From NCBI GenBank assembly GCA_003598025.1, contig QZKH01000003.1:439221-503220 (forward strand): a stretch of DNA of 64,000 nucleotides, in the 5' to 3' direction. The notes beneath the pieces are model-generated. The model saw only the letters and a list, made by a program, of their open reading frames with translations, had not been told where the DNA came from and ran no database searches. A program made the translations under genes and the position numbers. Shown here in pieces: positions 10,304-60,477 of this stretch. Position 1 is the first letter of the stretch; each line of letters opens with the position of its first letter. This stretch comes from Candidatus Omnitrophota bacterium (GTDB taxonomy: Bacteria > Omnitrophota > Gorgyraeia > Gygaellales > Profunditerraquicolaceae).

Positions 10304-11035
10304 GGGGACGTTCCCCCTAATACCATTCTATGGTATCCTAAATGCTTGATCTACAATACGTTCGTAAGGGCGCCATTCACGTACCCGCTCCGCATAACGG
10401 CAACGCCTCTCTTCAATCGTAAAGCCTAGGCTTTCATACATAGGATTGAGCAGATTAATTATAGCATCTGGTTTGCCATTTGCATAGAATTGAAAACTAC
10501 TCCAACAATAATCAGCAATATCCTTCACTAGCCCAGCACGTAAAGGATTCCTTTCTATGTATCTTGCACATTCAATAAGGTAACCTTCGCTTTCAATTAT
10601 TCGGCTATTATATCTATTTTGGAATAAATAGCCCACCGATCCGTATTTGCTGCGGAATCCAGCCCCATACTTTTGTAATAAACCCTGCATAAACTTGGGA
10701 ACATGCTCAGCTTTAATTGTTTTTATCAATACATGGAAATGATTCGGCATTAAGCAATAATGCAAAATGCTTATTGGATGTTTTTGTCTGTACTCTCTAA
10801 TTAGTGCTAAAAACCATTGATAATCCTGTTTAGCCCGGAACAGTTTTCTTTTATCATTGCCTCTGACAACAATATGATAATAACTTCCGTCAACTAGCCC
10901 CCTGTTTTTTCTCGGCATAAATTCCTCCTTTCACTTATAAAAGACGGTCCAAGAATCAGATATCTAACTATTTTTTTATTAGTTGAAACAAATAAAGTTA
11001 TAGCATGGCTGGATGGCACCTTGGGGAACGTCCCC
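10304..11035 (-). mobile_element. REP-associated tyrosine transposase (RAYT, IS200/IS605-like) flanked by inverted 13-bp palindromes GGGGACGTTCCCC (10304..10316) and GGGGAACGTCCCC (11023..11035)
   Basis: The palindromes were read directly from the sequence. They are reverse complements of each other and bracket the transposase ORF. Confidence 0.75.
10328..10918 (-). CDS. tnpA: IS200-like / REP-associated tyrosine transposase (Y1 HUH transposase)
   Basis: YYHIVVRGN...LMPNHFHVLIKT (HUH motif), and a catalytic Tyr region RYIERNPLRAGLV. Confidence 0.85.
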   Translation of the reverse strand: MPRKNRGLVDGSYYHIVVRGNDKRKLFRAKQDYQWFLALIREYRQKHPISILHYCLMPNHFHVLIKTIKAEHVPKFMQGLLQKYGAGFRSKYGSVGYLFQNRYNSRIIESEGYLIECARYIERNPLRAGLVKDIADYCWSSFQFYANGKPDAIINLLNPMYESLGFTIEERRCRYAERVREWRPYERIVDQAFRIP

Positions 11036-31481: not shown

Positions 31482-32411
31482 TTACTGTGCCCTTATAGCA
31501 GTTACGGCTACGCAATCAACAACATCTTCAACGGAACAGCCGCGTGATAAATCGCTGGCAGGTTTATTCAAGCCTAAAAGCAACGGGCCCAACGCCCGGG
31601 CCTTAGCCAGCCTTTGCACCAGTTTATAACTTATATTACCGGCTTCCAGGTTCGGAAAAATTAATACATTTGCCCTGCCGCCAAGCGGGCTTTGCGGATA
31701 TTTTATCTTTGCGACCTCAGGCACTATTGCCGCATCAACCTGTAATTCTCCGTCAACCAGTAAATTTGGAGCCATCTGCTTAAGATTGCTAAGCGCTTCG
31801 CTTATCTTATCAATCGATTTTGTCCTTGCCGAGCCTTTTGTCGAATAGCTGAGCAAAGCGATCCGTGGGGTAAGCCCGAGCACTTTCTGCGCCAGTTCCG
31901 AAGCTGCCAGGCAAATACAGGCTAATTGCCGAGAATTCGGTTCAGGTACTATTCCGCAATCTGCAAAAATAAAATTCCCGTTATCGCCATATACGCAATC
32001 CGGAACCGCCATAATAAAACAGCTGGAAACTATAGTAATGCGCTCGTTTACTCCCAGACATCTTATAGCCGCTCTTGCCACATCGGGTGTGGTGTGGCTT
32101 GCCCCGGCGACAAGCCCGTCAACCCTTCCTTCCGCGGTCATCATCGCGGCATAATAAAGAGTATCGTCAAAAAGCTTCTTTACGTCATCAAGCTTAAGGT
32201 CCTTAGACTTATAATCATTATAAAACTGCTGGATGTACTTTTCCCTGGTAGATGAATCCATTTTATCTTTTGAAAGGAGTAAGACATTGGCTATTTTTTC
32301 TTTCTCAATTATCTTTACCGCTTCAACGACCCTTTTATCATTGTATTCCGGCAAGACTATCGTCTTTAATTTCTGGCCGGCTTTGCTGCGAATCTTAGAA
32401 ATAGTATCCAT
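31482..32411 (-). CDS. pta: phosphate acetyl/butyryltransferase (short-form Pta/Ptb catalytic domain)
   Basis: 309 aa. The SRGCSVEDV C-terminal motif is typical of phosphotransacylases. Confidence 0.85.
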   Translation of the reverse strand: MDTISKIRSKAGQKLKTIVLPEYNDKRVVEAVKIIEKEKIANVLLLSKDKMDSSTREKYIQQFYNDYKSKDLKLDDVKKLFDDTLYYAAMMTAEGRVDGLVAGASHTTPDVARAAIRCLGVNERITIVSSCFIMAVPDCVYGDNGNFIFADCGIVPEPNSRQLACICLAASELAQKVLGLTPRIALLSYSTKGSARTKSIDKISEALSNLKQMAPNLLVDGELQVDAAIVPEVAKIKYPQSPLGGRANVLIFPNLEAGNISYKLVQRLAKARALGPLLLGLNKPASDLSRGCSVEDVVDCVAVTAIRAQ

Positions 32412-32412
32412 T

Positions 32413-33504
32413 TTAAATCCCCCTGAGAATTCTATTTAAATCAACATTATCTTTAATAAGCCTGACTACCGCATCGATCTTCTCTTTATCGCGCGGCCTT
32501 ATTTTTACCGTTAAATCATGTATCTTTGTTGCAACATCGTAAGTATCGGATTTGGCTAATAAAACAGTTATTTGCGCTTTATGGAGCAGGTTTAAAATCG
32601 GCTGCTCTGGCAATATCCCTCCCGATAATACCAAACCGCAGACTTTTAGCCTCTTCGTCTCTTGCCCGCGGAAACAACTGAGTGCTGTCATTATCAGGTC
32701 TTCCCTGTCACCGGGAGTGATCAATAGGCTGTCATCAACCAGGTATTTGATTGCGTCATGCGGCTCCATTGCCCCGACGATGACCGAAGAAACAGCAACT
32801 TCGGCATACTCCTTGCCGCAGAGTAATTCAAAATCAGTTTCTTCAAGGATCTGCTCAATTGAAGGCCTGGATAACATGGGGTTATAAGGTATCACCCCTA
32901 AAAGGTCTATTCCGCTGCGCTGTAAACCCTTCTTTACCAGACGGCTTATCTTATCTATTTTGCTCGGAATGACTTTATTGATTATAACACCCAGAACCTT
33001 GACTCCTTCTTTTTCAAAGAGCGCCTTATTTAAAAGTATCTCGTCAATAGGCCTGCCGATACCGCCGGAAGAAACAATTATTACCTTGCATCCCAGCAAT
33101 CTGGCAACCCGTGCATTTGAATGGTCAAAAACAGAACCTACCCCGGCATGCCCGGTGCCTTCAACGATTACCAGGTTCTGCTTTCTGGAAACGCGGCCGA
33201 ATGCATCTTTGATCTGTTTTGAGATTAAATTCCTGTTTGGGTTGGCTATATACTTCTCGGTGAAACCCTTCTCAACAGCGATAGGGCTCATATCCTTAAG
33301 CCCGCTTTTTATCCCGCAGACTACCTCTACCAGTAAAGAGTCTTCGTCGATCTTCAAGCCTTCTTCTTCAAGGTACCTTTGCCCGATGGGCTTGATAAAG
33401 CTTACCCTTTTAAGCTTATCTCTAAAATTAGAGATTAAGCCTAATGAAACGGTCGTCTTGCCGTCATTCTGCTTAGTCGCGGCAATAAATACCTTCTTCA
33501 TCAA
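32413..33504 (-). CDS. stand-alone Pta N-terminal-domain-like protein (BioD/CobQ-like P-loop plus DRTGG domain)
   Basis: ATKQNDGKTTVSLGL P-loop-like motif and a DRTGG-like C-terminal half. This resembles the N-terminal about 350 aa of long-form Pta. Confidence 0.65.
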   Translation of the reverse strand: MMKKVFIAATKQNDGKTTVSLGLISNFRDKLKRVSFIKPIGQRYLEEEGLKIDEDSLLVEVVCGIKSGLKDMSPIAVEKGFTEKYIANPNRNLISKQIKDAFGRVSRKQNLVIVEGTGHAGVGSVFDHSNARVARLLGCKVIIVSSGGIGRPIDEILLNKALFEKEGVKVLGVIINKVIPSKIDKISRLVKKGLQRSGIDLLGVIPYNPMLSRPSIEQILEETDFELLCGKEYAEVAVSSVIVGAMEPHDAIKYLVDDSLLITPGDREDLIMTALSCFRGQETKRLKVCGLVLSGGILPEQPILNLLHKAQITVLLAKSDTYDVATKIHDLTVKIRPRDKEKIDAVVRLIKDNVDLNRILRGI

Positions 33505-33821
33505 AGATTCTCTTCGATCCTCTTTTTTAACTCTGTCTTATTTAAAGCGCCGACTACCTGGTCTATGATCTTTCCGCCTTTGAGAAAAACCAAGGTGGGT
33601 ATAGACATTATTCCGTAATGCGTGGCTATACCGGAAGCCTCATCAACGTTAACTTTACCGATTTTCATCTTACCTTTATACTCTTTGGCCAGTTCATCAA
33701 CTATCGGGCCGACTAATTTACAAGGCCCGCACCACTCCGCCCAGAAATCAACAAGGACGGGCAAATCCGACTCTAAAACCTCTTTTTTAAATGTAGCTTC
33801 TGTAAAATGTAAAGTCGCCAT
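33501..33821 (-). CDS. trxA: thioredoxin
   Basis: WAEWCGPCK active site. 106 aa. Confidence 0.9.
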   Translation of the reverse strand: MATLHFTEATFKKEVLESDLPVLVDFWAEWCGPCKLVGPIVDELAKEYKGKMKIGKVNVDEASGIATHYGIMSIPTLVFLKGGKIIDQVVGALNKTELKKRIEENL

Positions 33822-33908: not shown

Positions 33909-33984
33909 AGGTCCGTTTCTCCCACTGACCATAGAAGTGCCCCCATGGGGGGGCACTTCTATGAGGAGCTAGAGAAACGGACCT
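33909..33984. repeat. mosaic GC-rich palindromic element, copy A: AGGTCCGTTTCTC - CACTGACCATAG - AAGTGCCCCCATGGGGGGGCACTT - ...GAGAAACGGACCT
   Basis: Read directly. 12-bp outer arms and a 15-bp inner stem. It shares three modules with copy B at 39484..39560. Confidence 0.7.
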
Positions 33985-35575
33985 AGGGCTGGATGCTTCT
34001 GGAAAATAAACCCCCTGTTAAGGCATCTAAAGAAGCTGTTAATTCCTGTAACTTTAACTCCTTATCAAACCTCTTCTTCCTATCAGTGATCTGCAACTCG
34101 TCGATCTCTTTTTTAGTCCTTATCCTTTCAAAATACAGCTTTGTCACCTGGTCAAGAATGTCTTCCCTGAGCTCTACCATTAATCTCGACCTGGCATCGA
34201 TTGAGGTTTGAACGTCATTCCATATTATATCGCTCAAATCCCAGCTTAGGCCGATGTCCCAGTTTATGCTATCCCTTCCCCTCCTGAGTATATCATCATC
34301 TGTCTTCGTAGTTGAACCTGATTCCCAATGCCAAAGATCAGTCGCATCTCTATCTATGCCTATATCAAGCTTCGGTAAAAGTGCTTTTTTGGCGGCTTTC
34401 TTCCTCCATTCTGATATCTTTTCGCTGGAAACCTCCGCATAAACAATCGCCGCCTTATGCGCCTCTTGAATCGTTGGCTCGCTCTTTAGGTACTCCTGAA
34501 ACTGCGCATTATAAACGCCGGTTTCTGTTTTCTCTTTTAAATCGGCTCTAAATAACCCGTTGTCACAAGCAGCGTATATCAATCCGCTGTTGCTGACAGC
34601 TAAATCCTTAATACTCTTGGCTATAAGCCTAAGTGAAATCTCCTGCCACCTTTCTCCAATTAATTCGAATATTCCGGAATCAGAAGAAACATAAATACCA
34701 AAATCCTGGTTTATAAATATTTTACTTATATTCCTGCTCAGCAATCCAAAATCGCTTACTTTTTGCCAGTCACTCCCTTCGTTTACGCTGATATATACCC
34801 CGTTTGAGGTAGCCATGTATATTCTATCAAGACGCCCCGAGCCAAAAGCAATATTACGTATCTCAGGAGAAAAATAATTTTCGCTTTCCTTTGCCTGCTC
34901 TTCATCCTCCGAATCTTCTTTATGCTCTGAAGATATCACAAAAGAAAATACCTTAACCCAAAGATTATCCGCTAACTTCTTTCTAAATAAACTTCCTTTA
35001 GTAGCAACAAAGATGTATTGCGAATTAGCGGTGACGGAGACAATTTCCAGCTCACCTAATTCTCCCATCTCGCTGCTCCAGCTATTGCCTTTATTATCAC
35101 TTATAAGCAGCCCTGACCTAGTGCCAAGATATAATACGCCGCCTAAAGATCCTATACCGGTACAATCCCCTTTAAGATAATCACGGTTTTTATAGATCCT
35201 CGACCATTTATTACCATTACTTTGACTAAAAAACAAGCCGCTATCCGTAGCTGCAAAAAAAAATTTAGTATTATTTATCACTGAGCTGATTGAGTTTATT
35301 TTTTTACCCCTGCCTCTGAGAATAAGAGCCTTTTCCCAGGTTGAGCCCCCATCTTGCGACCTTAAGATATAGCCCTTGCGGCCTGCCAGGATAAGATCCG
35401 GATGTACCGGCTCAGTAAACACGCAAGTATACCCGGTTTCTCCCTGAGAAATATCTTTCCAGGCTGGCTCTGCTGCTCCCACACTGCCGCAAGCAGTTAT
35501 GAGAAGCAAAGCAACTAAAACAAAAGTTTTTTGCATCATCTTGCACCTCCTGATTAGATGACGCAAAAGGTACAT
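33983..35575 (-). CDS. exported BNR/Ycf48-like beta-propeller repeat protein with a C-terminal coiled-coil region
   Basis: Signal peptide with a lipobox-like LITACGS. Repeated SxDxGxTW-like motifs (SQDGGSTW, SDNKGNSW, VNEGSDWQ). Confidence 0.6.
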   Translation of the reverse strand: MYLLRHLIRRCKMMQKTFVLVALLLITACGSVGAAEPAWKDISQGETGYTCVFTEPVHPDLILAGRKGYILRSQDGGSTWEKALILRGRGKKINSISSVINNTKFFFAATDSGLFFSQSNGNKWSRIYKNRDYLKGDCTGIGSLGGVLYLGTRSGLLISDNKGNSWSSEMGELGELEIVSVTANSQYIFVATKGSLFRKKLADNLWVKVFSFVISSEHKEDSEDEEQAKESENYFSPEIRNIAFGSGRLDRIYMATSNGVYISVNEGSDWQKVSDFGLLSRNISKIFINQDFGIYVSSDSGIFELIGERWQEISLRLIAKSIKDLAVSNSGLIYAACDNGLFRADLKEKTETGVYNAQFQEYLKSEPTIQEAHKAAIVYAEVSSEKISEWRKKAAKKALLPKLDIGIDRDATDLWHWESGSTTKTDDDILRRGRDSINWDIGLSWDLSDIIWNDVQTSIDARSRLMVELREDILDQVTKLYFERIRTKKEIDELQITDRKKRFDKELKLQELTASLDALTGGLFSRSIQP

Positions 35576-35615
35576 GAATTCTAACGAAATTTTTTGTTGA
35601 AAATTGGCGGGGGCG

Positions 35616-35855
35616 CTACTTTATGCCACCCTCAGAATGGTCATTCCTGAACTCTTCTAAGAGTTGAATGGCTTGCTCAAACTGGCTGGATTCCACCTTT
35701 ATTCTGGCTGGGACTGCTAAAGGACGTATCTGCAGGAAATTTTCTCCCTCAATTATAAAATCAATGCCTTCTGATTCTAACAGCGATTTTATAAACGCTA
35801 CATGAAAAGGATTCATAGTGACATAGACCTCTTTATATAACTTATCCGCTTCCAT
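35616..35855 (-). CDS. DUF2007-like small putative signal-transducing protein
   Basis: 79 aa. Pattern recognition only. Confidence 0.45.
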   Translation of the reverse strand: MEADKLYKEVYVTMNPFHVAFIKSLLESEGIDFIIEGENFLQIRPLAVPARIKVESSQFEQAIQLLEEFRNDHSEGGIK

Positions 35856-35860
35856 AATAT

Positions 35861-38068
35861 TTATCCTCCTGGATATAAACTAAGAAGTTCGGTTTTTATC
35901 TCTTCGTAATAAGGTAAATCTACTTTCTTGTATATTTCCTGGGCCAGCCTTAAATGCTCCCTGGCTTTGTTTTTACGCCCCTGCTGTTTATAAAGCAGGC
36001 CCAAATCGTGGTAAGCTTCCGCAAGCTCAAGCTGAGCATCAATATCTTTGCAACTGGAAATGGCTAATTTAAAATACTTCTCCGCTTCTGATAAATTGTC
36101 CATATCGACATACAATTCCCCGATCATAGTATAGGCGCATGCTATATTAGGTTTATGGCCCTGCTCTGTATCTATCTCTAAACCCTTCTGATAATAATCC
36201 ATTGCTTTCAGGTATTCTTTCTGGAATTTGTAAACTTCCCCTATATTAAAATAATAATCGCTTAATTCATGTTTTAATTTCAATTCTTTGAATAAAACAA
36301 AACTTTTATCGTAGAATTCCTTTGCAGTTGCGTAATCATCTTTATTGGTGAATAATAGCCCGAGGTTAAAATAATCACAGGCAAGGTTATATTTATGCCT
36401 GTATATATTTATCCTCTGGCGGTTTATCTCCGAACTTTTTGTTAATAATTCAAGTGCCTTATCATTATCATCCTTATCCATATACCAAACAGCCAACTTC
36501 CCCAGGACATCGGCTTCGTTAAGCTTATCGCTATTCTTCCTGCTAAGGCTCAGGGCCTTATTATAGAATTCTAAAGCCTTGGGATAATCGCCGTGCATAT
36601 GGTAGATCCATCCTATGCCGGAATATGCGCAAGCAAGCCTGTTATTATCATTTTTCTTTTCGCTTTGCATGGCATATTGAAAATAATATTTTAGGGCAAG
36701 GTCTTTCTTCCCCATTCTGCGATAAGCATCTCCCAATAGCGGATATGCAGGCAGAAAACCCGGATCGCTGCTTACAATTTTACCGCATATATCAATTACC
36801 TTTTCGTTCTTACCAGACAGGTACAATTTGGAGGAATTGCTGTATTTAGCGTAAGTTGAAGGGTTAATACTTGGCAATATCCTGATTGCGCCGACGAAAA
36901 TTAAACAGCAAGCGCCGGTAACAGCCAATGCAGAAACTGCCTTTTTGCGCTTAAAGTTAGCTATCTGCGGAGTACTGGACCTAACTGCATTTTGCGCCCC
37001 AAAAAAATTGTAGCTTGGGTCGCCATATAACACATAACTAGCCCAAGAAATATTATCCAGGCCATATTCTTTTATTAATTTCATCCTTGCTAAACGTAAA
37101 CTTTTACCTAAACTGTTTCCTGATGTTAACCCGCCGTAAAATTCACGGGCAAATCTTAAGCTTTCATTGTCTTCAATCTTTCTTATCGCTCCGATATAAT
37201 GCCTCACCCCTGAAAACAAAAAGGCCGAGCCTAATGTGTATGCCCGTTCTTGGCATTCAATATCAGAAAGGTCATTCTGCATTTGCGCTGAATGACATGC
37301 ATTTGAAAAAACTAATGATGGCAAAGGTGAACTTTCACTTAAGGCGATAATATCATCAGCAGTAAATATATTATCGCTTAATACCCAGCCTGTATCACTT
37401 ACATCGCTGGATTTTGATTCGCAATGCCCCGCGAAATGCACTATATCGTAATCACGCAGGTTTCTCTTAACATACATTGAATCAATATTAGTTGATTTAA
37501 AATCAACGCCGATCCTGCTTCTATTTTTGTCAAATTGGTTCTTAATGAAGATTCCCTCTCTATATGCCGAATCAAGATCATTCGTGGGATTAGCCAGCAC
37601 AAGCATTTTGGGTTTTTGCGAAACACTTCTGTAGCGATTAAGTCCAAGCTCATTCTTGCTCCTTACTATCCTGCCCAGGTCAAATTTTAAGCTCAGGAAA
37701 TCCTGCCCATCATACAACAATTCCCAGGGAATATTTGTTAGTTCCTCATCCATCATTATAACCAGGTTACTAGAGGCAAGGCTTTTAAGTTTTTGTTTCA
37801 CTGGCTTGCTAAAAAGGTGGTCCCATAATAGCTGCCCGCTCTTTTTCAGGGAATTTGCCAGGGATAAAGGGTTGGATTTATCCTTATACCTTCTGCTTAA
37901 AATATCAGTGATATCGCGGCAAATACCAGTTATTTGCCTCTCGTCAAAATTTAGCTGTGTATAATGCCTTACTGTCTGAGCAAAATCATCCGCCTTAAAC
38001 AAACTCATCTTCAGGCGTAAGCTGTCTTTAAAAAGCTCCAATATCCATGCCCTTGAGCTATCTTCCAT
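35861..38068 (-). CDS. CHAT-domain (caspase-like) protease with a central TM helix and C-terminal TPR repeats
   Basis: The IVHFAGHC (His) and LVFSNACHS (Cys) catalytic dyad lie in the N-terminal half. The hydrophobic segment AVSALAVTGACCLIFVGAIRIL is at about residue 380. At least 7 TPR-like repeats fill the C-terminal half. Confidence 0.8.
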   Translation of the reverse strand: MEDSSRAWILELFKDSLRLKMSLFKADDFAQTVRHYTQLNFDERQITGICRDITDILSRRYKDKSNPLSLANSLKKSGQLLWDHLFSKPVKQKLKSLASSNLVIMMDEELTNIPWELLYDGQDFLSLKFDLGRIVRSKNELGLNRYRSVSQKPKMLVLANPTNDLDSAYREGIFIKNQFDKNRSRIGVDFKSTNIDSMYVKRNLRDYDIVHFAGHCESKSSDVSDTGWVLSDNIFTADDIIALSESSPLPSLVFSNACHSAQMQNDLSDIECQERAYTLGSAFLFSGVRHYIGAIRKIEDNESLRFAREFYGGLTSGNSLGKSLRLARMKLIKEYGLDNISWASYVLYGDPSYNFFGAQNAVRSSTPQIANFKRKKAVSALAVTGACCLIFVGAIRILPSINPSTYAKYSNSSKLYLSGKNEKVIDICGKIVSSDPGFLPAYPLLGDAYRRMGKKDLALKYYFQYAMQSEKKNDNNRLACAYSGIGWIYHMHGDYPKALEFYNKALSLSRKNSDKLNEADVLGKLAVWYMDKDDNDKALELLTKSSEINRQRINIYRHKYNLACDYFNLGLLFTNKDDYATAKEFYDKSFVLFKELKLKHELSDYYFNIGEVYKFQKEYLKAMDYYQKGLEIDTEQGHKPNIACAYTMIGELYVDMDNLSEAEKYFKLAISSCKDIDAQLELAEAYHDLGLLYKQQGRKNKAREHLRLAQEIYKKVDLPYYEEIKTELLSLYPGG

Positions 38069-38782
38069 TTATACAAATTGTTTGATATCCAAAACTATCG
38101 TTGCCATTGCCTTTTCATCAGAAGTGATCTCCAGCCTATATTTTCCTAACATAACCTCCTCAAAAACAACTACCCCGGAGCTACCGATATAAGACTCAAG
38201 CGTAAGGTCATCTTTTAAAAGGGTGACTCTTAGCTCCTTAACAAGTTTTTGGGAATCCTTGTCCTTCATGGTTACCTGGACCTGAAACTTATTGTTCCTT
38301 TTATTATCGATTTTAAGCTCAACCCTGAGCCTGTCAAAATCTTTTAGTATTATTATTTCGTCCCTGAAGTTATTTATCTTACGGCTCCTTAATACAGACG
38401 CGGAGACCAGTTCCTGTCCCAGAAGGATATCCCCAGAGCTATGTAATAACTCTATGATCTGGCCGCGAAAGGCCAAGGCTATATCCATCATTAAATCCTT
38501 CAGCCCTGCGCTGGCCATGCTTTTTACTCCTTCCAGGAGTGCTGCCGGGGCATCCTTAGCCTCTGGATTTCTGAGCTTGTTCAACGTTACCAGCAATTCC
38601 AGGCAATCACTGCAATTTAAAACATGCGCCTTTAACTTCTCTTTATCATCATGGCTAAGCTTATTATCCAGAAAACAGGCCAAAGATTCTTCATCAGGAT
38701 GAGCGCTATCCTGGACTAGCTTAATTTTCTTCTTCCAATTCCTGAATATATGCTTAATAAAAAGCTCATTTTTTGCCTGCAT
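38069..38782 (-). CDS. anti-sigma factor (zf-HC2 type)
   Basis: AHVLNCSDCLELL H-x3-C-x2-C motif near the N-terminus. It sits directly downstream of the ECF sigma gene. Confidence 0.6.
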   Translation of the reverse strand: MQAKNELFIKHIFRNWKKKIKLVQDSAHPDEESLACFLDNKLSHDDKEKLKAHVLNCSDCLELLVTLNKLRNPEAKDAPAALLEGVKSMASAGLKDLMMDIALAFRGQIIELLHSSGDILLGQELVSASVLRSRKINNFRDEIIILKDFDRLRVELKIDNKRNNKFQVQVTMKDKDSQKLVKELRVTLLKDDLTLESYIGSSGVVVFEEVMLGKYRLEITSDEKAMATIVLDIKQFV

Positions 38783-38817
38783 GCGTAGTCCTTCCCATTC
38801 TATTAGACGAGATTAAT

Positions 38818-39423
38818 TCAACTTTCTAACGCAAATCCTTTAGTTTTAAAGCATTCTTTGAGCCTCTGCACGATCCTTGACTTTCTCATATCCACTGCCC
38901 CGCGGGATATGCTAAGCAACTGCCTCACCTCATCTAAGGCCAACCCCTTATTGATATTCAGCTCGATGAATAGTTTGTCATCCAAGTCAAGCAGCTCAAT
39001 ACAATCTTCTAAAGTAGATAGTTTTTCCTGTAATAAGGCTTCGTCATCTGCCAGTGGCTTATTATCGCTGATTATTTCTTTTATACTAAGCCCTGGATCA
39101 ACCTCCTCATCAATAGATATGTAGTCCTTCTGCCTTCTCAGATAATCGATTGTAAAGTTCGCCACGACAGGTTTAAGCCAGCTGGATAATGAGCATCCGT
39201 TTTTGGCTTTAAAGCTCTTTAATTTCTTAAAATTGTCTTTTCTTAAGAAGATGAATATTTCCTGAAAAATATCTCCGGAAATATCTCTATTTGGATGGTA
39301 GTTTTTGATACTTAGAACACCGTGGATGTAACTATAGATAAAGCGGGAATATTTCTCTATGAACTGAACCCAGGCAAGTTTTTCATCATTTATACATCTC
39401 TGGACAAACTCCAGATCGTTCAT
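38818..39423 (-). CDS. ECF-type RNA polymerase sigma factor (sigma-70 family)
   Basis: Region 2 (FQEIFIFL..K) and region 4 (LDEVRQLLSISRGAVDMRKSRIVQRLKE). Start set at ATG 39423 (MNDLEF). The track's N-terminal extension depends on a TTG start. A TATAAT box lies about 8 nt upstream. Confidence 0.75.
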   Translation of the reverse strand: MNDLEFVQRCINDEKLAWVQFIEKYSRFIYSYIHGVLSIKNYHPNRDISGDIFQEIFIFLRKDNFKKLKSFKAKNGCSLSSWLKPVVANFTIDYLRRQKDYISIDEEVDPGLSIKEIISDNKPLADDEALLQEKLSTLEDCIELLDLDDKLFIELNINKGLALDEVRQLLSISRGAVDMRKSRIVQRLKECFKTKGFALES

Positions 39424-39478
39424 GTAGTTAATTATACTACAACCTAGCCAAAAACACAATAACCCTATTCCCTCATAC

Positions 39479-39560
39479 AAAAAAGAGCTGCCCCCGCTTT
39501 TGGGGGCAGCTCTATGGTCAGTGACAGAAACGGTCCGTGGTCAGCAGGAGAAACGGACCT
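39479..39560 (-). terminator. mosaic palindromic element, copy B, which also acts as the intrinsic terminator of hppA
   Basis: In minus sense, directly after the hppA stop: ...GAGCTGCCCCCAAAAGCGGGGGCAGCTC followed by TTTTTT. It shares CACTGACCATAG (inverted), GAGAAACGGACCT and a G5/C5 hairpin with copy A. Confidence 0.7.
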
Positions 39561-60336: not shown

Positions 60337-60363
60337 AAGCCAATGTCCTCCTGTTTGGATTTT

Positions 60364-60411
60364 GTAGGAGTTATCAGCCTGTTGAGGCGTTTATTGGCAA
60401 ACCCCATTGCC
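60364..60411 (-). promoter_or_regulatory. fluoride riboswitch (crcB RNA motif) in the crcB leader
   Basis: In minus sense: GGCAAUGGGGUUUGCCAAUAAACGCCUCAACAGGCUGAUAACUCCUAC. It aligns position-for-position with my recollection (recalled from memory; not verified against a database) of the crystallised Thermotoga petrophila aptamer GGCGAUGAGGCCCGCCCAAACUGCCCUGAAAAGGGCUGAUGGCCUCUAC. The GGGGUU/AACUCC pseudoknot is complementary. A TATAAT -10 box lies at about 60433..60438 (rc). Confidence 0.85.
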
Positions 60412-60477
60412 AGTATTAATCTTCAGTTTATTATACCCCTTAACCTCTAAAAAATCATCTTTTATTTATTGCTGCTA

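Follow-up and report, generated by a model that had tools for sequence, protein, structure and literature searches.

The DNA examined here is a stretch of 64,000 nucleotides (the window) from contig QZKH01000003.1 of the Candidatus Omnitrophota bacterium assembly GCA_003598025.1. It carries neighboring genes for a sigma factor of the extracytoplasmic function (ECF) type, a soluble zinc-binding anti-sigma (ZAS) factor, and a protein in which an N-terminal caspase-like CHAT domain is followed by one transmembrane (TM) helix and a series of tetratricopeptide repeats (TPR). Our preferred reading, to which we assign a probability of about 0.55, is that the three genes form a transmembrane unit in which the CHAT protein is a membrane sensor-protease that cuts the anti-sigma factor with its cytoplasmic CHAT domain. 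Directly supported are the linkage of the genes across phyla, their translational coupling, the conservation of the catalytic dyad, the topology of the CHAT protein, the absence of any membrane-spanning helix from the anti-sigma factor, and two promoter classes with their positions. Protease-gated control of an ECF sigma factor is a known principle; the triad is an unexpectedly widespread and apparently undescribed form of it, with a distinctive circuit.

Conservation of the triad in Omnitrophota

When one genome per species was scanned, 159 relatives came up and 80 loci were kept, which were then compared with the window proteins by tblastn. The CHAT protein has more than 800 homologs, the best 120 of which are 53 to 58% identical to it and about 730 amino acids (aa) long; every source-named homolog among these 120 is from Omnitrophota. 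In each of the 74 Omnitrophota loci whose upstream sequence is long enough, the genes for the sigma factor, the anti-sigma factor, and the CHAT protein share one strand and keep the same order; the anti-sigma gene was present in 77 of 77 loci, and the six incomplete loci are contig ends. The arrangement is far beyond chance and was found again in each of the related loci examined for which flanking sequence was available.

A preliminary description of the locus had counted a small DUF2007 protein among the possible components and had suggested that the beta-propeller (BNR) protein encoded downstream might be another. The protein encoded at 35616-35855 does match Pfam DUF2007 (40.7 bits; cutoff, 25.7), but it is absent from all 80 related loci; a phmmer search at E<10 against all open reading frames (ORFs) of these loci returned one spurious match only, and DUF2007 was rejected as a component. 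A BNR ortholog lies downstream in 42 loci, at distances of 60 nt to 5.5 kb and with unrelated genes in between. Since DUF2007 has no homolog in the 80 loci and the downstream flank has repeatedly been broken by insertions, while the triad never has, we regard the triad as the conserved core and DUF2007 as a passenger.

Clear triad orthologs were also present in metagenome-assembled genomes (MAGs) labeled Planctomycetales, Margulisiibacteriota, or Patescibacteria (L019-L021, L023, L031, L039, L043, L053, L059-L061, and L064). The labels are probably due to binning errors or a superseded classification, not to a real spread of the triad.

The triad and its relatives in other phyla

An exhaustive HMMER search with residues 1 to 375 of the CHAT protein gave 638 cluster representatives at E≤1e-30, and 8876 when the limit was E≤1e-3. 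Among the 150 best representatives, almost all have the CHAT domain at or near the N terminus, one hydrophobic helix 15 to 60 residues later, and a variable C terminus (TPR, DUF4384, CsgG-like, or TolB-like), an architecture referred to below as CHAT-TM-X. The preliminary description had presented the order CHAT-TM-TPR as the reverse of the common one, yet among these representatives the order CHAT-TM-X is not rare. About one-quarter of the 150 carry an additional N-terminal domain of 220 to 260 aa, which, with its FTDIVGST motif and a match to Pfam Guanylate_cyc, belongs to the class III nucleotide cyclases. An interpretation of these extensions as fused anti-sigma factors, which would have been a Rosetta-stone case, was discarded: they are cyclases, and the anti-sigma query matched 0 of the 150 representatives.

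For the more distant relatives, 28 CHAT domains were aligned and 80 metagenomic loci were fetched with the alignment, and the ORFs of these loci were searched with hidden Markov models of the Omnitrophota sigma and anti-sigma factors. The counts given here cover the 52 loci with at least 1.5 kb of upstream sequence, in which the CHAT-TM-X proteins show 35 to 40% identity. Both a sigma gene and an anti-sigma gene were found directly upstream on the same strand in 42 of the 52, and the anti-sigma stop codon usually overlaps the CHAT start (-3 or -7 nt); two further loci had the anti-sigma gene only. Independent gene calls combined with Pfam searches recovered the triad in the cultured Desulfonema magnum (CP061800.1, 1,624,223-1,627,513), Syntrophorhabdaceae, two Nitrospirota, and one Nitrospinota MAG. 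Each of the three proteins is homologous between D. magnum and the window: the CHAT proteins share 37% identity, the sigma factors 23% (E 8e-11), and the anti-sigma factors 25% in an alignment that takes in the two domains (E 2e-11). About 120 triads were collected in all. Judged by gene order and homology, the triad is kept in no fewer than five bacterial phyla, with carriers among Omnitrophota, Desulfobacterota, Nitrospirota, Nitrospinota, and Syntrophorhabdaceae-type lineages, so that the linkage, whose conservation the preliminary description had left to be checked, extends far more broadly than anticipated.

These comparisons also bear on whether the adjacency might be inherited synteny with no functional link. 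The flanking genes for H+-pyrophosphatase, BNR protein, thioredoxin (trx), and phosphate acetyltransferase (pta) are likewise often syntenic in Omnitrophota, which would fit such an explanation, but insertions repeatedly disrupt the downstream flank and never the triad, the triad occurs in other phyla with different flanks, and its genes overlap. Cross-phylum conservation already makes mere synteny unlikely, and we give it next to no weight.

Several features of the distant loci deserve mention in their own right. Cyclase-CHAT-TM-X fusions (L087, L125, L133, L139, L148, L149, and L153; CHAT domain from residue 225 or later) make up most of the loci without sigma and anti-sigma genes, which suggests that a cyclic-nucleotide output may replace the sigma output in this branch. 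In Syntrophorhabdaceae-type loci (L163:7932-11627, L164:4177-7917, and L165:4172-7912), genes for a sigma factor, a zf-HC2 protein, and a CHAT-DUF4384 protein are directly followed by genes for a second CHAT protein, a TPR-CHAT protein of 1231 to 1246 aa, and a large TPR protein; the arrangement may represent a proteolytic cascade or a paralogous sensor. The triads of Nitrospirota, Nitrospinota, and Desulfonema (L166:4099-7439, L167:5188-9087, and L161:2129-4597) lie beside genes for proteins of the CsgG/LpoB/FlgO-like and Glucodextran_B-like kinds and for a FadL-type (Toluene_X) outer-membrane protein, and the Nitrospinota locus has an additional BNR/Sortilin-Vps10 protein beside the triad. 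These flanks echo the BNR neighbor of the Omnitrophota triad and point to an envelope function.

The CHAT protein as a predicted single-pass receptor

The CHAT domain matches PF12770 with 123.1 bits (cutoff, 24) over residues 76 to 350, covering profile positions 2 to 289 of 289. The motifs HFAGHC and NACHS occupy residues 211 to 216 and 256 to 260. In an alignment of 22 orthologs, H211, H215, and C258 are invariant, as are the equivalent His216 and Cys259 in the 28 distant CHAT domains. In the family profile, the dyad motifs line up with SGHG and DSCHSG in GSU0716 (3bij), a caspase-like protein of known structure; the match is at motif level (E 0.06). The domain has a conserved caspase-like His-Cys dyad and is a predicted peptidase. 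A PDB search with the CHAT domain alone returned nothing meaningful, and one with the family profile returned weak matches only.

The remainder of the architecture given in the preliminary description, a dyad in the N-terminal half followed by one hydrophobic helix and at least seven TPRs, holds up. The TPR part matches TPR_12 with 131 bits, and strong TPR matches extend over residues 440 to 730. An AlphaFold2 (AF2) model places 17 helices over residues 403 to 729 with a predicted local distance difference test score (pLDDT) above 90, corresponding to about eight TPR hairpins, and Foldseek relates this part to the TPR superhelices of LGN and CTPR proteins. The TPR sequence is highly conserved among orthologs. 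A fold search with the full CHAT-TM-TPR model returned TPR proteins only; the CHAT part of the model is of low confidence.

The CHAT protein has no signal peptide. Lysine and arginine residues average 5.7 in the 15 residues before the hydrophobic helix versus 1.5 after it, and the N-terminal side has the higher count in 116 of 116 orthologs. Together with the cyclase fusions, whose N-terminal domains need cytoplasmic ATP or GTP, these features support a cytoplasmic location of the CHAT domain and a periplasmic location of the TPR domain, in agreement with the membrane-spanning sensor-protease originally suggested. The receptor logic that we propose follows from the contrast between a constant cytoplasmic CHAT domain and varying C-terminal domains.

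Sigma and anti-sigma factors

The sigma factor matches TIGR02937 (sigma70-ECF; 68.7 bits; cutoff, 42.9) over residues 17 to 191 and Pfam Sigma70_r2 (27.7 bits; cutoff, 24); its homolog in D. magnum matches Sigma70_r4_2 (47 bits), and the best relative in the PDB is SigW (E 1.7e-6). These profile matches identify it as an ECF (group IV) sigma-70 factor, with no equivalog-level match among the NCBIfam profiles. The zf-HC2 gene begins 35 nt downstream of the sigma gene, as is the case for cognate anti-sigma factors of ECF sigma factors.

The anti-sigma protein has the same sequence (100% identity) as C4533_04805 [Candidatus Omnitrophota bacterium] and matches Pfam zf-HC2 with 24.3 bits against a cutoff of 22.2. 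Its zinc ligands are H28, H53, C57, and C60, the last three in the arrangement H53-x3-C57-x2-C60; across phyla, the motif is (C/H)28-x24-H53-x3-C57-x2-C60, with H or C as the first ligand. On this pattern, the N-terminal helical domain conforms to the ZAS motif H/C-x23-26-H-x3-C-x2-C. The best PDB sequence match of the anti-sigma profile is the anti-sigma domain of the Myxococcus protein DdvA (E 0.028). No hydrophobic helix was found in the window protein, whose maximum Kyte-Doolittle hydropathy over 19 residues (KD19) is 1.03, or in 60 of 62 homologs (KD19 below 1.6). Having no TM helix, the protein is ruled out as a target for regulated intramembrane proteolysis.

In the AF2 model, the N-terminal part (anti-sigma domain, about residues 1 to 95) is helical and of moderate confidence, residues 74 to 94 are of low confidence, and residues 97 to 237 form a confident all-beta domain, a beta-sandwich. 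This extra C-terminal domain is conserved across homologs; apart from the zinc motif, the features best kept across phyla are VP78-79, V-x-R132-(S/G), and positions of the beta-sandwich. A conserved LRSR stretch was considered as a cleavage site in a disordered linker and was set aside, as in the AF2 model it falls within the beta-sandwich, on a loop or a short helix. Across phyla, the stretch shrinks to V-x-R-(S/G), which we retain only as a low-confidence candidate cleavage site.

Promoters and regulon

Two types of promoter-like sequence accompany the triad. Directly upstream of the sigma gene, the window reads GTAGTATAATTAACTAC-ATG, which may also be read as GTAGTATAAT-TAACTAC-ATG. A TAYAMT (TATAAT-like) box precedes the sigma gene in 69 of 72 related loci, ends 6 to 10 nt before the ATG in 67 of 72, and has a TGn extension in 58 of 72. 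Shine-Dalgarno-like sequences were found before only 2 of 72 sigma genes, in contrast to 42 of 49 anti-sigma genes. Since the -10 box lies so close to the ATG and a Shine-Dalgarno sequence is lacking, the housekeeping sigma factor probably transcribes the sigma gene, and the message is probably leaderless. In the window itself, the stretch 39421-39436 on the minus strand shows the TGnTATAAT-type box with no Shine-Dalgarno sequence after it, and the same pattern was observed upstream of the sigma genes in the related loci L001-L080.

The second type is the motif TGTTAGATT-N12-aCGTCTATT (its second half also as ACGTCTATT), with the core GTTAGA-N15-CGTC and the -10 CGTC signature typical of ECF promoters. 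This box overlaps the end of the sigma gene and precedes the anti-sigma ATG in 64 Omnitrophota loci, with a spacer of exactly 15 nt in 63 of the 64. It also occurs upstream of BNR orthologs in 39 loci, whatever the distance of the BNR gene from the triad. Of the 103 box sites overall, 100 keep the spacer at exactly 15 nt. The window contains three matches to the core pattern versus 0.2 expected, namely the two boxes listed in Table 1 and one with a 16-nt spacer at 10943-10968. Since the boxes in the window keep only the GTTAGA and CGTC cores, a search of the 64-kb window for the full consensus TGTTAGATT-N12-ACGTCTATT with up to three mismatches returned nothing. Loci from other phyla have a related box, TG[TC]AAGA-N~13-[CT]GTCTAT, in the corresponding position between the sigma and anti-sigma genes, at 26 sites plus three in L160, L167, and L168, where shuffled sequences gave an expectation of about 5 over all sequence. 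Target promoters of ECF sigma factors have an AAC-like -35 and a CGT-like -10 element and in most cases precede the sigma factor's own operon; the GTTAGA-N15-CGTC box sits after the sigma gene and not before it, the sigma gene having its own TATAAT-type box. Position and co-conservation point to this sigma factor as the most plausible user of the GTTAGA-N15-CGTC box.

The BNR protein matches PSII_BNR (42.3 bits) and has a signal peptide with an LLITAC lipobox. Because the promoter box and an AGGAGG sequence fall inside the called 5' end (35539-35575), the true start is more likely the ATG at 35539 than the called start at 35575; translation from there gives MMQKTF..LLITAC / MMQKTFVLVALLLITAC, a lipoprotein signal peptide. 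The ECF-type box common to the anti-sigma and BNR genes makes the BNR lipoprotein a probable member of the regulon, which gives substance to its initially tentative association with the module. Taken together, the promoter positions suggest that the sigma factor is constitutive, whereas the anti-sigma factor, the CHAT protein, and the BNR protein would depend on it; such dependence would provide negative feedback and an envelope output.

Two side observations concern the box. The match at 10943-10968 (minus strand; GTTAGA-N16-CGTC) lies just upstream of a gene for an IS200/RAYT-like Y1 transposase at 10328-10918 (minus strand; Pfam Y1_Tnp, 56 bits). In other loci, palindromes resembling repetitive extragenic palindromic (REP) sequences (AAGTGAGGGCACAACTTACGG...) lie directly 3' of a CGTCTATT box (L001:3956, L018:6163, L023:8757, L024:13891, L027:7110, and L032:8224); the window holds no copy of the palindrome AAGTGAGGGCACAACTTACGG.

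Proposed mechanism and its alternatives

In the proposed circuit, the anti-sigma factor would hold the sigma factor at rest. The periplasmic domain, here the TPR domain, would perceive an envelope or external cue, and a signal passing through the single helix would activate the His215/Cys258 dyad. The dyad would then cut the anti-sigma factor, whose beta-sandwich probably docks it to the CHAT domain. The freed sigma factor would transcribe from GTTAGA-N15-CGTC promoters both the BNR gene, as the envelope output, and the anti-sigma and CHAT genes, as negative feedback, while the sigma gene itself would be expressed constitutively from its housekeeping-type promoter, probably as a leaderless message. 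Contact between the anti-sigma factor and the CHAT protein, cleavage and its site, the signal, and the assignment of the promoter to the sigma factor are the parts of this circuit that we infer. Cleavage of a sigma inhibitor by a CHAT protease has a precedent in the Csx29/Csx30/CASP-sigma system (PMC10028731).

Five points weigh against this mechanism. The ZAS motif is complete, and the anti-sigma factor might sense redox by itself. The CHAT gene lies downstream of a sigma-type promoter and may thus be an output rather than an input. Assignment of the box to this sigma factor comes from position and co-conservation only, in a comparison that covered this one ECF sigma factor of these genomes. 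Around the catalytic cysteine, AF2 models the CHAT domain poorly (pLDDT below 50 at residues 255 to 299). Finally, 8 of the 52 distant loci, mostly cyclase fusions, have a CHAT-TM-X gene with neither a sigma nor an anti-sigma gene.

The first two of these points would be accounted for if the sigma and anti-sigma factors by themselves made up an RsrA-type switch driven by redox or thiols and the CHAT protein were an envelope or membrane protease produced under sigma control. Such a switch would agree with the complete zinc motif (C/H)28-x24-H53-x3-C57-x2-C60, with the solubility of the anti-sigma factor, and with the ECF-type box upstream of the anti-sigma and CHAT genes, which would make CHAT expression sigma dependent. 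However, the conserved beta-sandwich would have no role in it, the first zinc ligand varies between H and C, and translational coupling links the CHAT gene with its anti-sigma neighbor across phyla. A constant cytoplasmic protease joined to variable periplasmic domains is, moreover, the signature of a receptor and not of an effector. We consider an RsrA-type switch unlikely.

A different possibility is that the CHAT-TM-sensor protein acts with the sigma and anti-sigma factors without cutting the latter, either by tethering or sequestering their complex at the membrane and releasing it through a conformational change or by cutting the sigma factor, itself, or a third substrate. The linkage and topology fit this as well, and the CHAT domain of DdvA has been proposed to autoproteolyze in trans rather than to cut a partner (PMC11506125). 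On the other hand, the invariant dyad argues for catalysis, the sigma and anti-sigma factors are the only conserved cytoplasmic partners encoded nearby, and the Craspase precedent is cleavage of a sigma inhibitor (PMC10028731). Release without anti-sigma cleavage thus appears quite unlikely to us, and cleavage of the anti-sigma factor by a transmembrane CHAT receptor remains the preferred reading.

CHAT proteases and ECF-like sigma factors recur in defense systems (PMC10028731, PMC11506125), and the sigma factor has a weak match to NF041236 (CAS_III-E_sigma; 28 bits). An anti-phage defense or abortive-infection module akin to Craspase or to the islands controlled by DdvA/DdvS was therefore considered and rejected. 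The NF041236 score is far below the cutoff of 100, PADLOC matched nothing except a generic TPR, and the 64-kb window holds no CRISPR array or tandem repeats. Synteny with housekeeping genes (for pyrophosphatase, thioredoxin, and Pta) is conserved throughout the phylum, and the conserved target is a lipoprotein gene. A role in defense is highly improbable.

Comparison with known systems

In the RseA/DegS/RseP and RsiW/PrsW/RasP systems, membrane-spanning anti-sigma factors are degraded by site-1 and site-2 proteases and then by cytoplasmic ClpXP; both systems are outlined in PMC11506125 and PMC10028731. The circuit proposed here would likewise convert an envelope signal into proteolytic destruction of an anti-sigma factor and release of an ECF sigma factor. 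Unlike RseA and RsiW, the present anti-sigma factor lacks the transmembrane helix that marks anti-sigma factors under regulated intramembrane proteolysis, and a single membrane protein would hold both sensor and protease. BlaR1 and MecR1 are multi-pass membrane zinc metalloproteases with an extracytoplasmic sensor that inactivate the neighbor-encoded repressors BlaI and MecI. The likeness to them is one of working principle without homology: a sensor outside, a protease inside, and a regulator encoded next door.

The preliminary description had put forward that no characterized sigma/anti-sigma/CHAT system was known. This was wrong, since DdvA/DdvS (PMC11506125) and the Craspase proteins Csx29/Csx30/CASP-sigma (PMC10028731) exist, and CHAT genes occur in the context of ECF54 (PMC8999054). 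In Myxococcus xanthus, DdvA is a membrane anti-sigma factor with a periplasmic TPR-CHAT part that is proposed to cleave itself before RseP acts (PMC11506125). As envisaged for the present unit, an ECF sigma factor is held by a zinc-binding anti-sigma domain (CHCC in DdvA), TPRs and a CHAT His-Cys pair belong to one signaling unit, and the sigma factor is proposed to be set free when a signal induces caspase-like proteolysis (PMC11506125). DdvA differs in being one polypeptide, in the order anti-sigma domain, TM helix, TPR, and CHAT, with a periplasmic CHAT domain whose active site is incomplete, and in still needing RseP (PMC11506125). This single-polypeptide arrangement was not found here; the anti-sigma factor is a soluble protein with a gene of its own, the membrane protein runs CHAT-TM-TPR, and the predicted cytoplasmic CHAT domain would lie beside its presumed substrate. 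Similarity in sequence to 8rot_B and 8rlz_A was marginal. DdvA-like proteins are reported almost only from Myxococcota, where DdvS controls a CBASS/CRISPR island (PMC11506125).

Craspase (Cas7-11-Csx29, Csx30, Csx31, and CASP-sigma) resembles the unit in that a cytoplasmic CHAT protease cuts a soluble inhibitor of an ECF-like sigma factor, a step that is proposed for the unit and established for Craspase (PMC10028731). Csx30 is cut in a loop of its C-terminal domain, and its N-terminal domain binds the sigma factor; the spacing between His and Cys is 43 residues both in Csx29 (H615/C658) and in the window CHAT domain (H215/C258) (PMC10028731). In contrast to the transmembrane sensor envisaged here, Craspase is activated by crRNA-guided binding of target RNA to Cas7-11, Csx30 is not a zf-HC2/ZAS protein, and Csx29 has the order TPR-CHAT without a membrane helix (PMC10028731). 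None of the marks of a Craspase module (Cas7-11/gRAMP, a CRISPR array, or an NF041236 sigma factor) was found at the locus, the NF041236 match being the 28 bits given above.

CalpL/CalpT/CalpS also combines a dedicated protease, a soluble anti-sigma factor, and a sigma factor of the ECF-like kind in one effector system, but its protease is a SAVED-Lon protein, its input is cytoplasmic cyclic oligoadenylate, and it serves type III CRISPR defense (PMC11417357, bioRxiv 10.1101/2024.05.08.593097). ECF54 has CHAT, subtilase, and carboxypeptidase genes in its context, with a conserved association of the sigma gene and a CHAT-domain gene, and proteolytic control has been proposed for it (PMC8999054, PMC7826278). 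It is actinobacterial and described as having no anti-sigma factor, and a membrane CHAT-TM-sensor is not described for it (PMC8999054, PMC7826278); CHAT is not mentioned in the main text of PMC7826278.

With its separate genes, its CHAT-TM-sensor protein, its predicted cytoplasmic CHAT domain, its soluble ZAS anti-sigma factor, and no cas genes, the unit does not share the defining features of the DdvA, Craspase, or CalpL/CalpT/CalpS families and appears to lack those of ECF54. No description of a split, membrane-anchored triad with a cytoplasmic CHAT domain was found in the searchable literature, although a mention in a catalogue is possible, as the supplementary ECF group descriptions (PMC7826278) lie outside that coverage.

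At slightly less than even odds in our judgment, the triad may be a widespread, unrecognized form of ECF control. A single-pass CHAT receptor would directly cleave a ZAS anti-sigma factor docked through its beta-sandwich, a single transmembrane step would replace the cascade of regulated intramembrane proteolysis, a sigma factor made constitutively from a leaderless mRNA would drive expression of the anti-sigma factor, the protease, and envelope targets only, and the cyclase variants would add a cyclic-nucleotide output. If so, a caspase-like protease serving as a transmembrane receptor would be a new activation route where few are known. The membrane-anchored bacterial CHAT proteins, a large and uncharacterized class (the 638 cluster representatives at E≤1e-30), would gain a concrete substrate and role, and the uncultured Omnitrophota would gain a defined circuit that runs from the sensor and sigma factor to the promoter box and its target, the lipoprotein. 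Together with this box, the small set of protease, anti-sigma factor, and sigma factor could also be made into an orthogonal, protease-gated expression switch. One carrier of the triad, D. magnum, is cultured.

Gene organization and other features of the window

The four co-directional genes of the preliminary description were confirmed at their coordinates on the minus strand; with the BNR gene, they form a run of five, bounded by the H+-pyrophosphatase terminator at one end and the thioredoxin gene at the other (Table 1). Intergenic gaps are 35, 0, 5, and 40 nt in order. The earlier range of 5 to 35 nt was correct for the gap after the sigma gene and the gap before DUF2007 but not for the middle one, where the anti-sigma stop codon abuts the CHAT start. 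A generic scan of the window for promoters and terminators added only the pyrophosphatase terminator.

Table 1. Features of the triad locus and its immediate surroundings, in window coordinates
Feature	Position	Strand	Evidence or remarks
Intrinsic terminator hairpin of the upstream H+-pyrophosphatase gene	39484-39513	-	12-bp stem with 9 GC pairs, then T-run; upstream limit of the unit
-10 box TATAAT, housekeeping type	39431-39436	-	7 nt from the sigma ATG; no Shine-Dalgarno sequence
ECF-type sigma factor, 201 aa	38818-39423	-	TIGR02937, Sigma70_r2
Promoter box GTTAGA-N15-CGTC	38806-38830	-	Over the sigma stop codon, ~25 nt upstream of the anti-sigma ATG
Soluble ZAS-type anti-sigma factor, 237 aa	38069-38782	-	Pfam zf-HC2
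CHAT-TM-TPR protein, whole gene, 735 aa	35861-38068	-	Pfam CHAT and TPR
Predicted cytoplasmic CHAT domain, residues 1-355, dyad H215/C258	37004-38068	-	Pfam CHAT, alignments, cyclase fusions
Single transmembrane helix, residues ~377-399	36872-36940	-	KD19 2.3; AF2 helix 376-400
Predicted periplasmic TPR sensor domain, residues 403-729	35882-36862	-	TPR Pfam, AF2, Foldseek
DUF2007 gene, 79 aa, window-specific passenger	35616-35855	-	Pfam DUF2007
Second GTTAGA-N15-CGTC box	35560-35585	-	Upstream of the BNR gene
BNR/Ycf48-like beta-propeller lipoprotein with C-terminal extension	33983-35539 (called 33983-35575)	-	PSII_BNR, lipobox

Past the BNR gene, positions 31482-33821 (minus strand) hold a thioredoxin gene followed by a split pta, in which the DRTGG-domain protein and the phosphate acetyltransferase are encoded by separate genes. 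The order trx/DRTGG/pta recurs in many Omnitrophota loci and represents conserved housekeeping synteny around the unit. The sole Rfam match in the window is a fluoride riboswitch at 60358-60420 (minus strand), which scores 57.9 bits against RF01734 (gathering score, 34).

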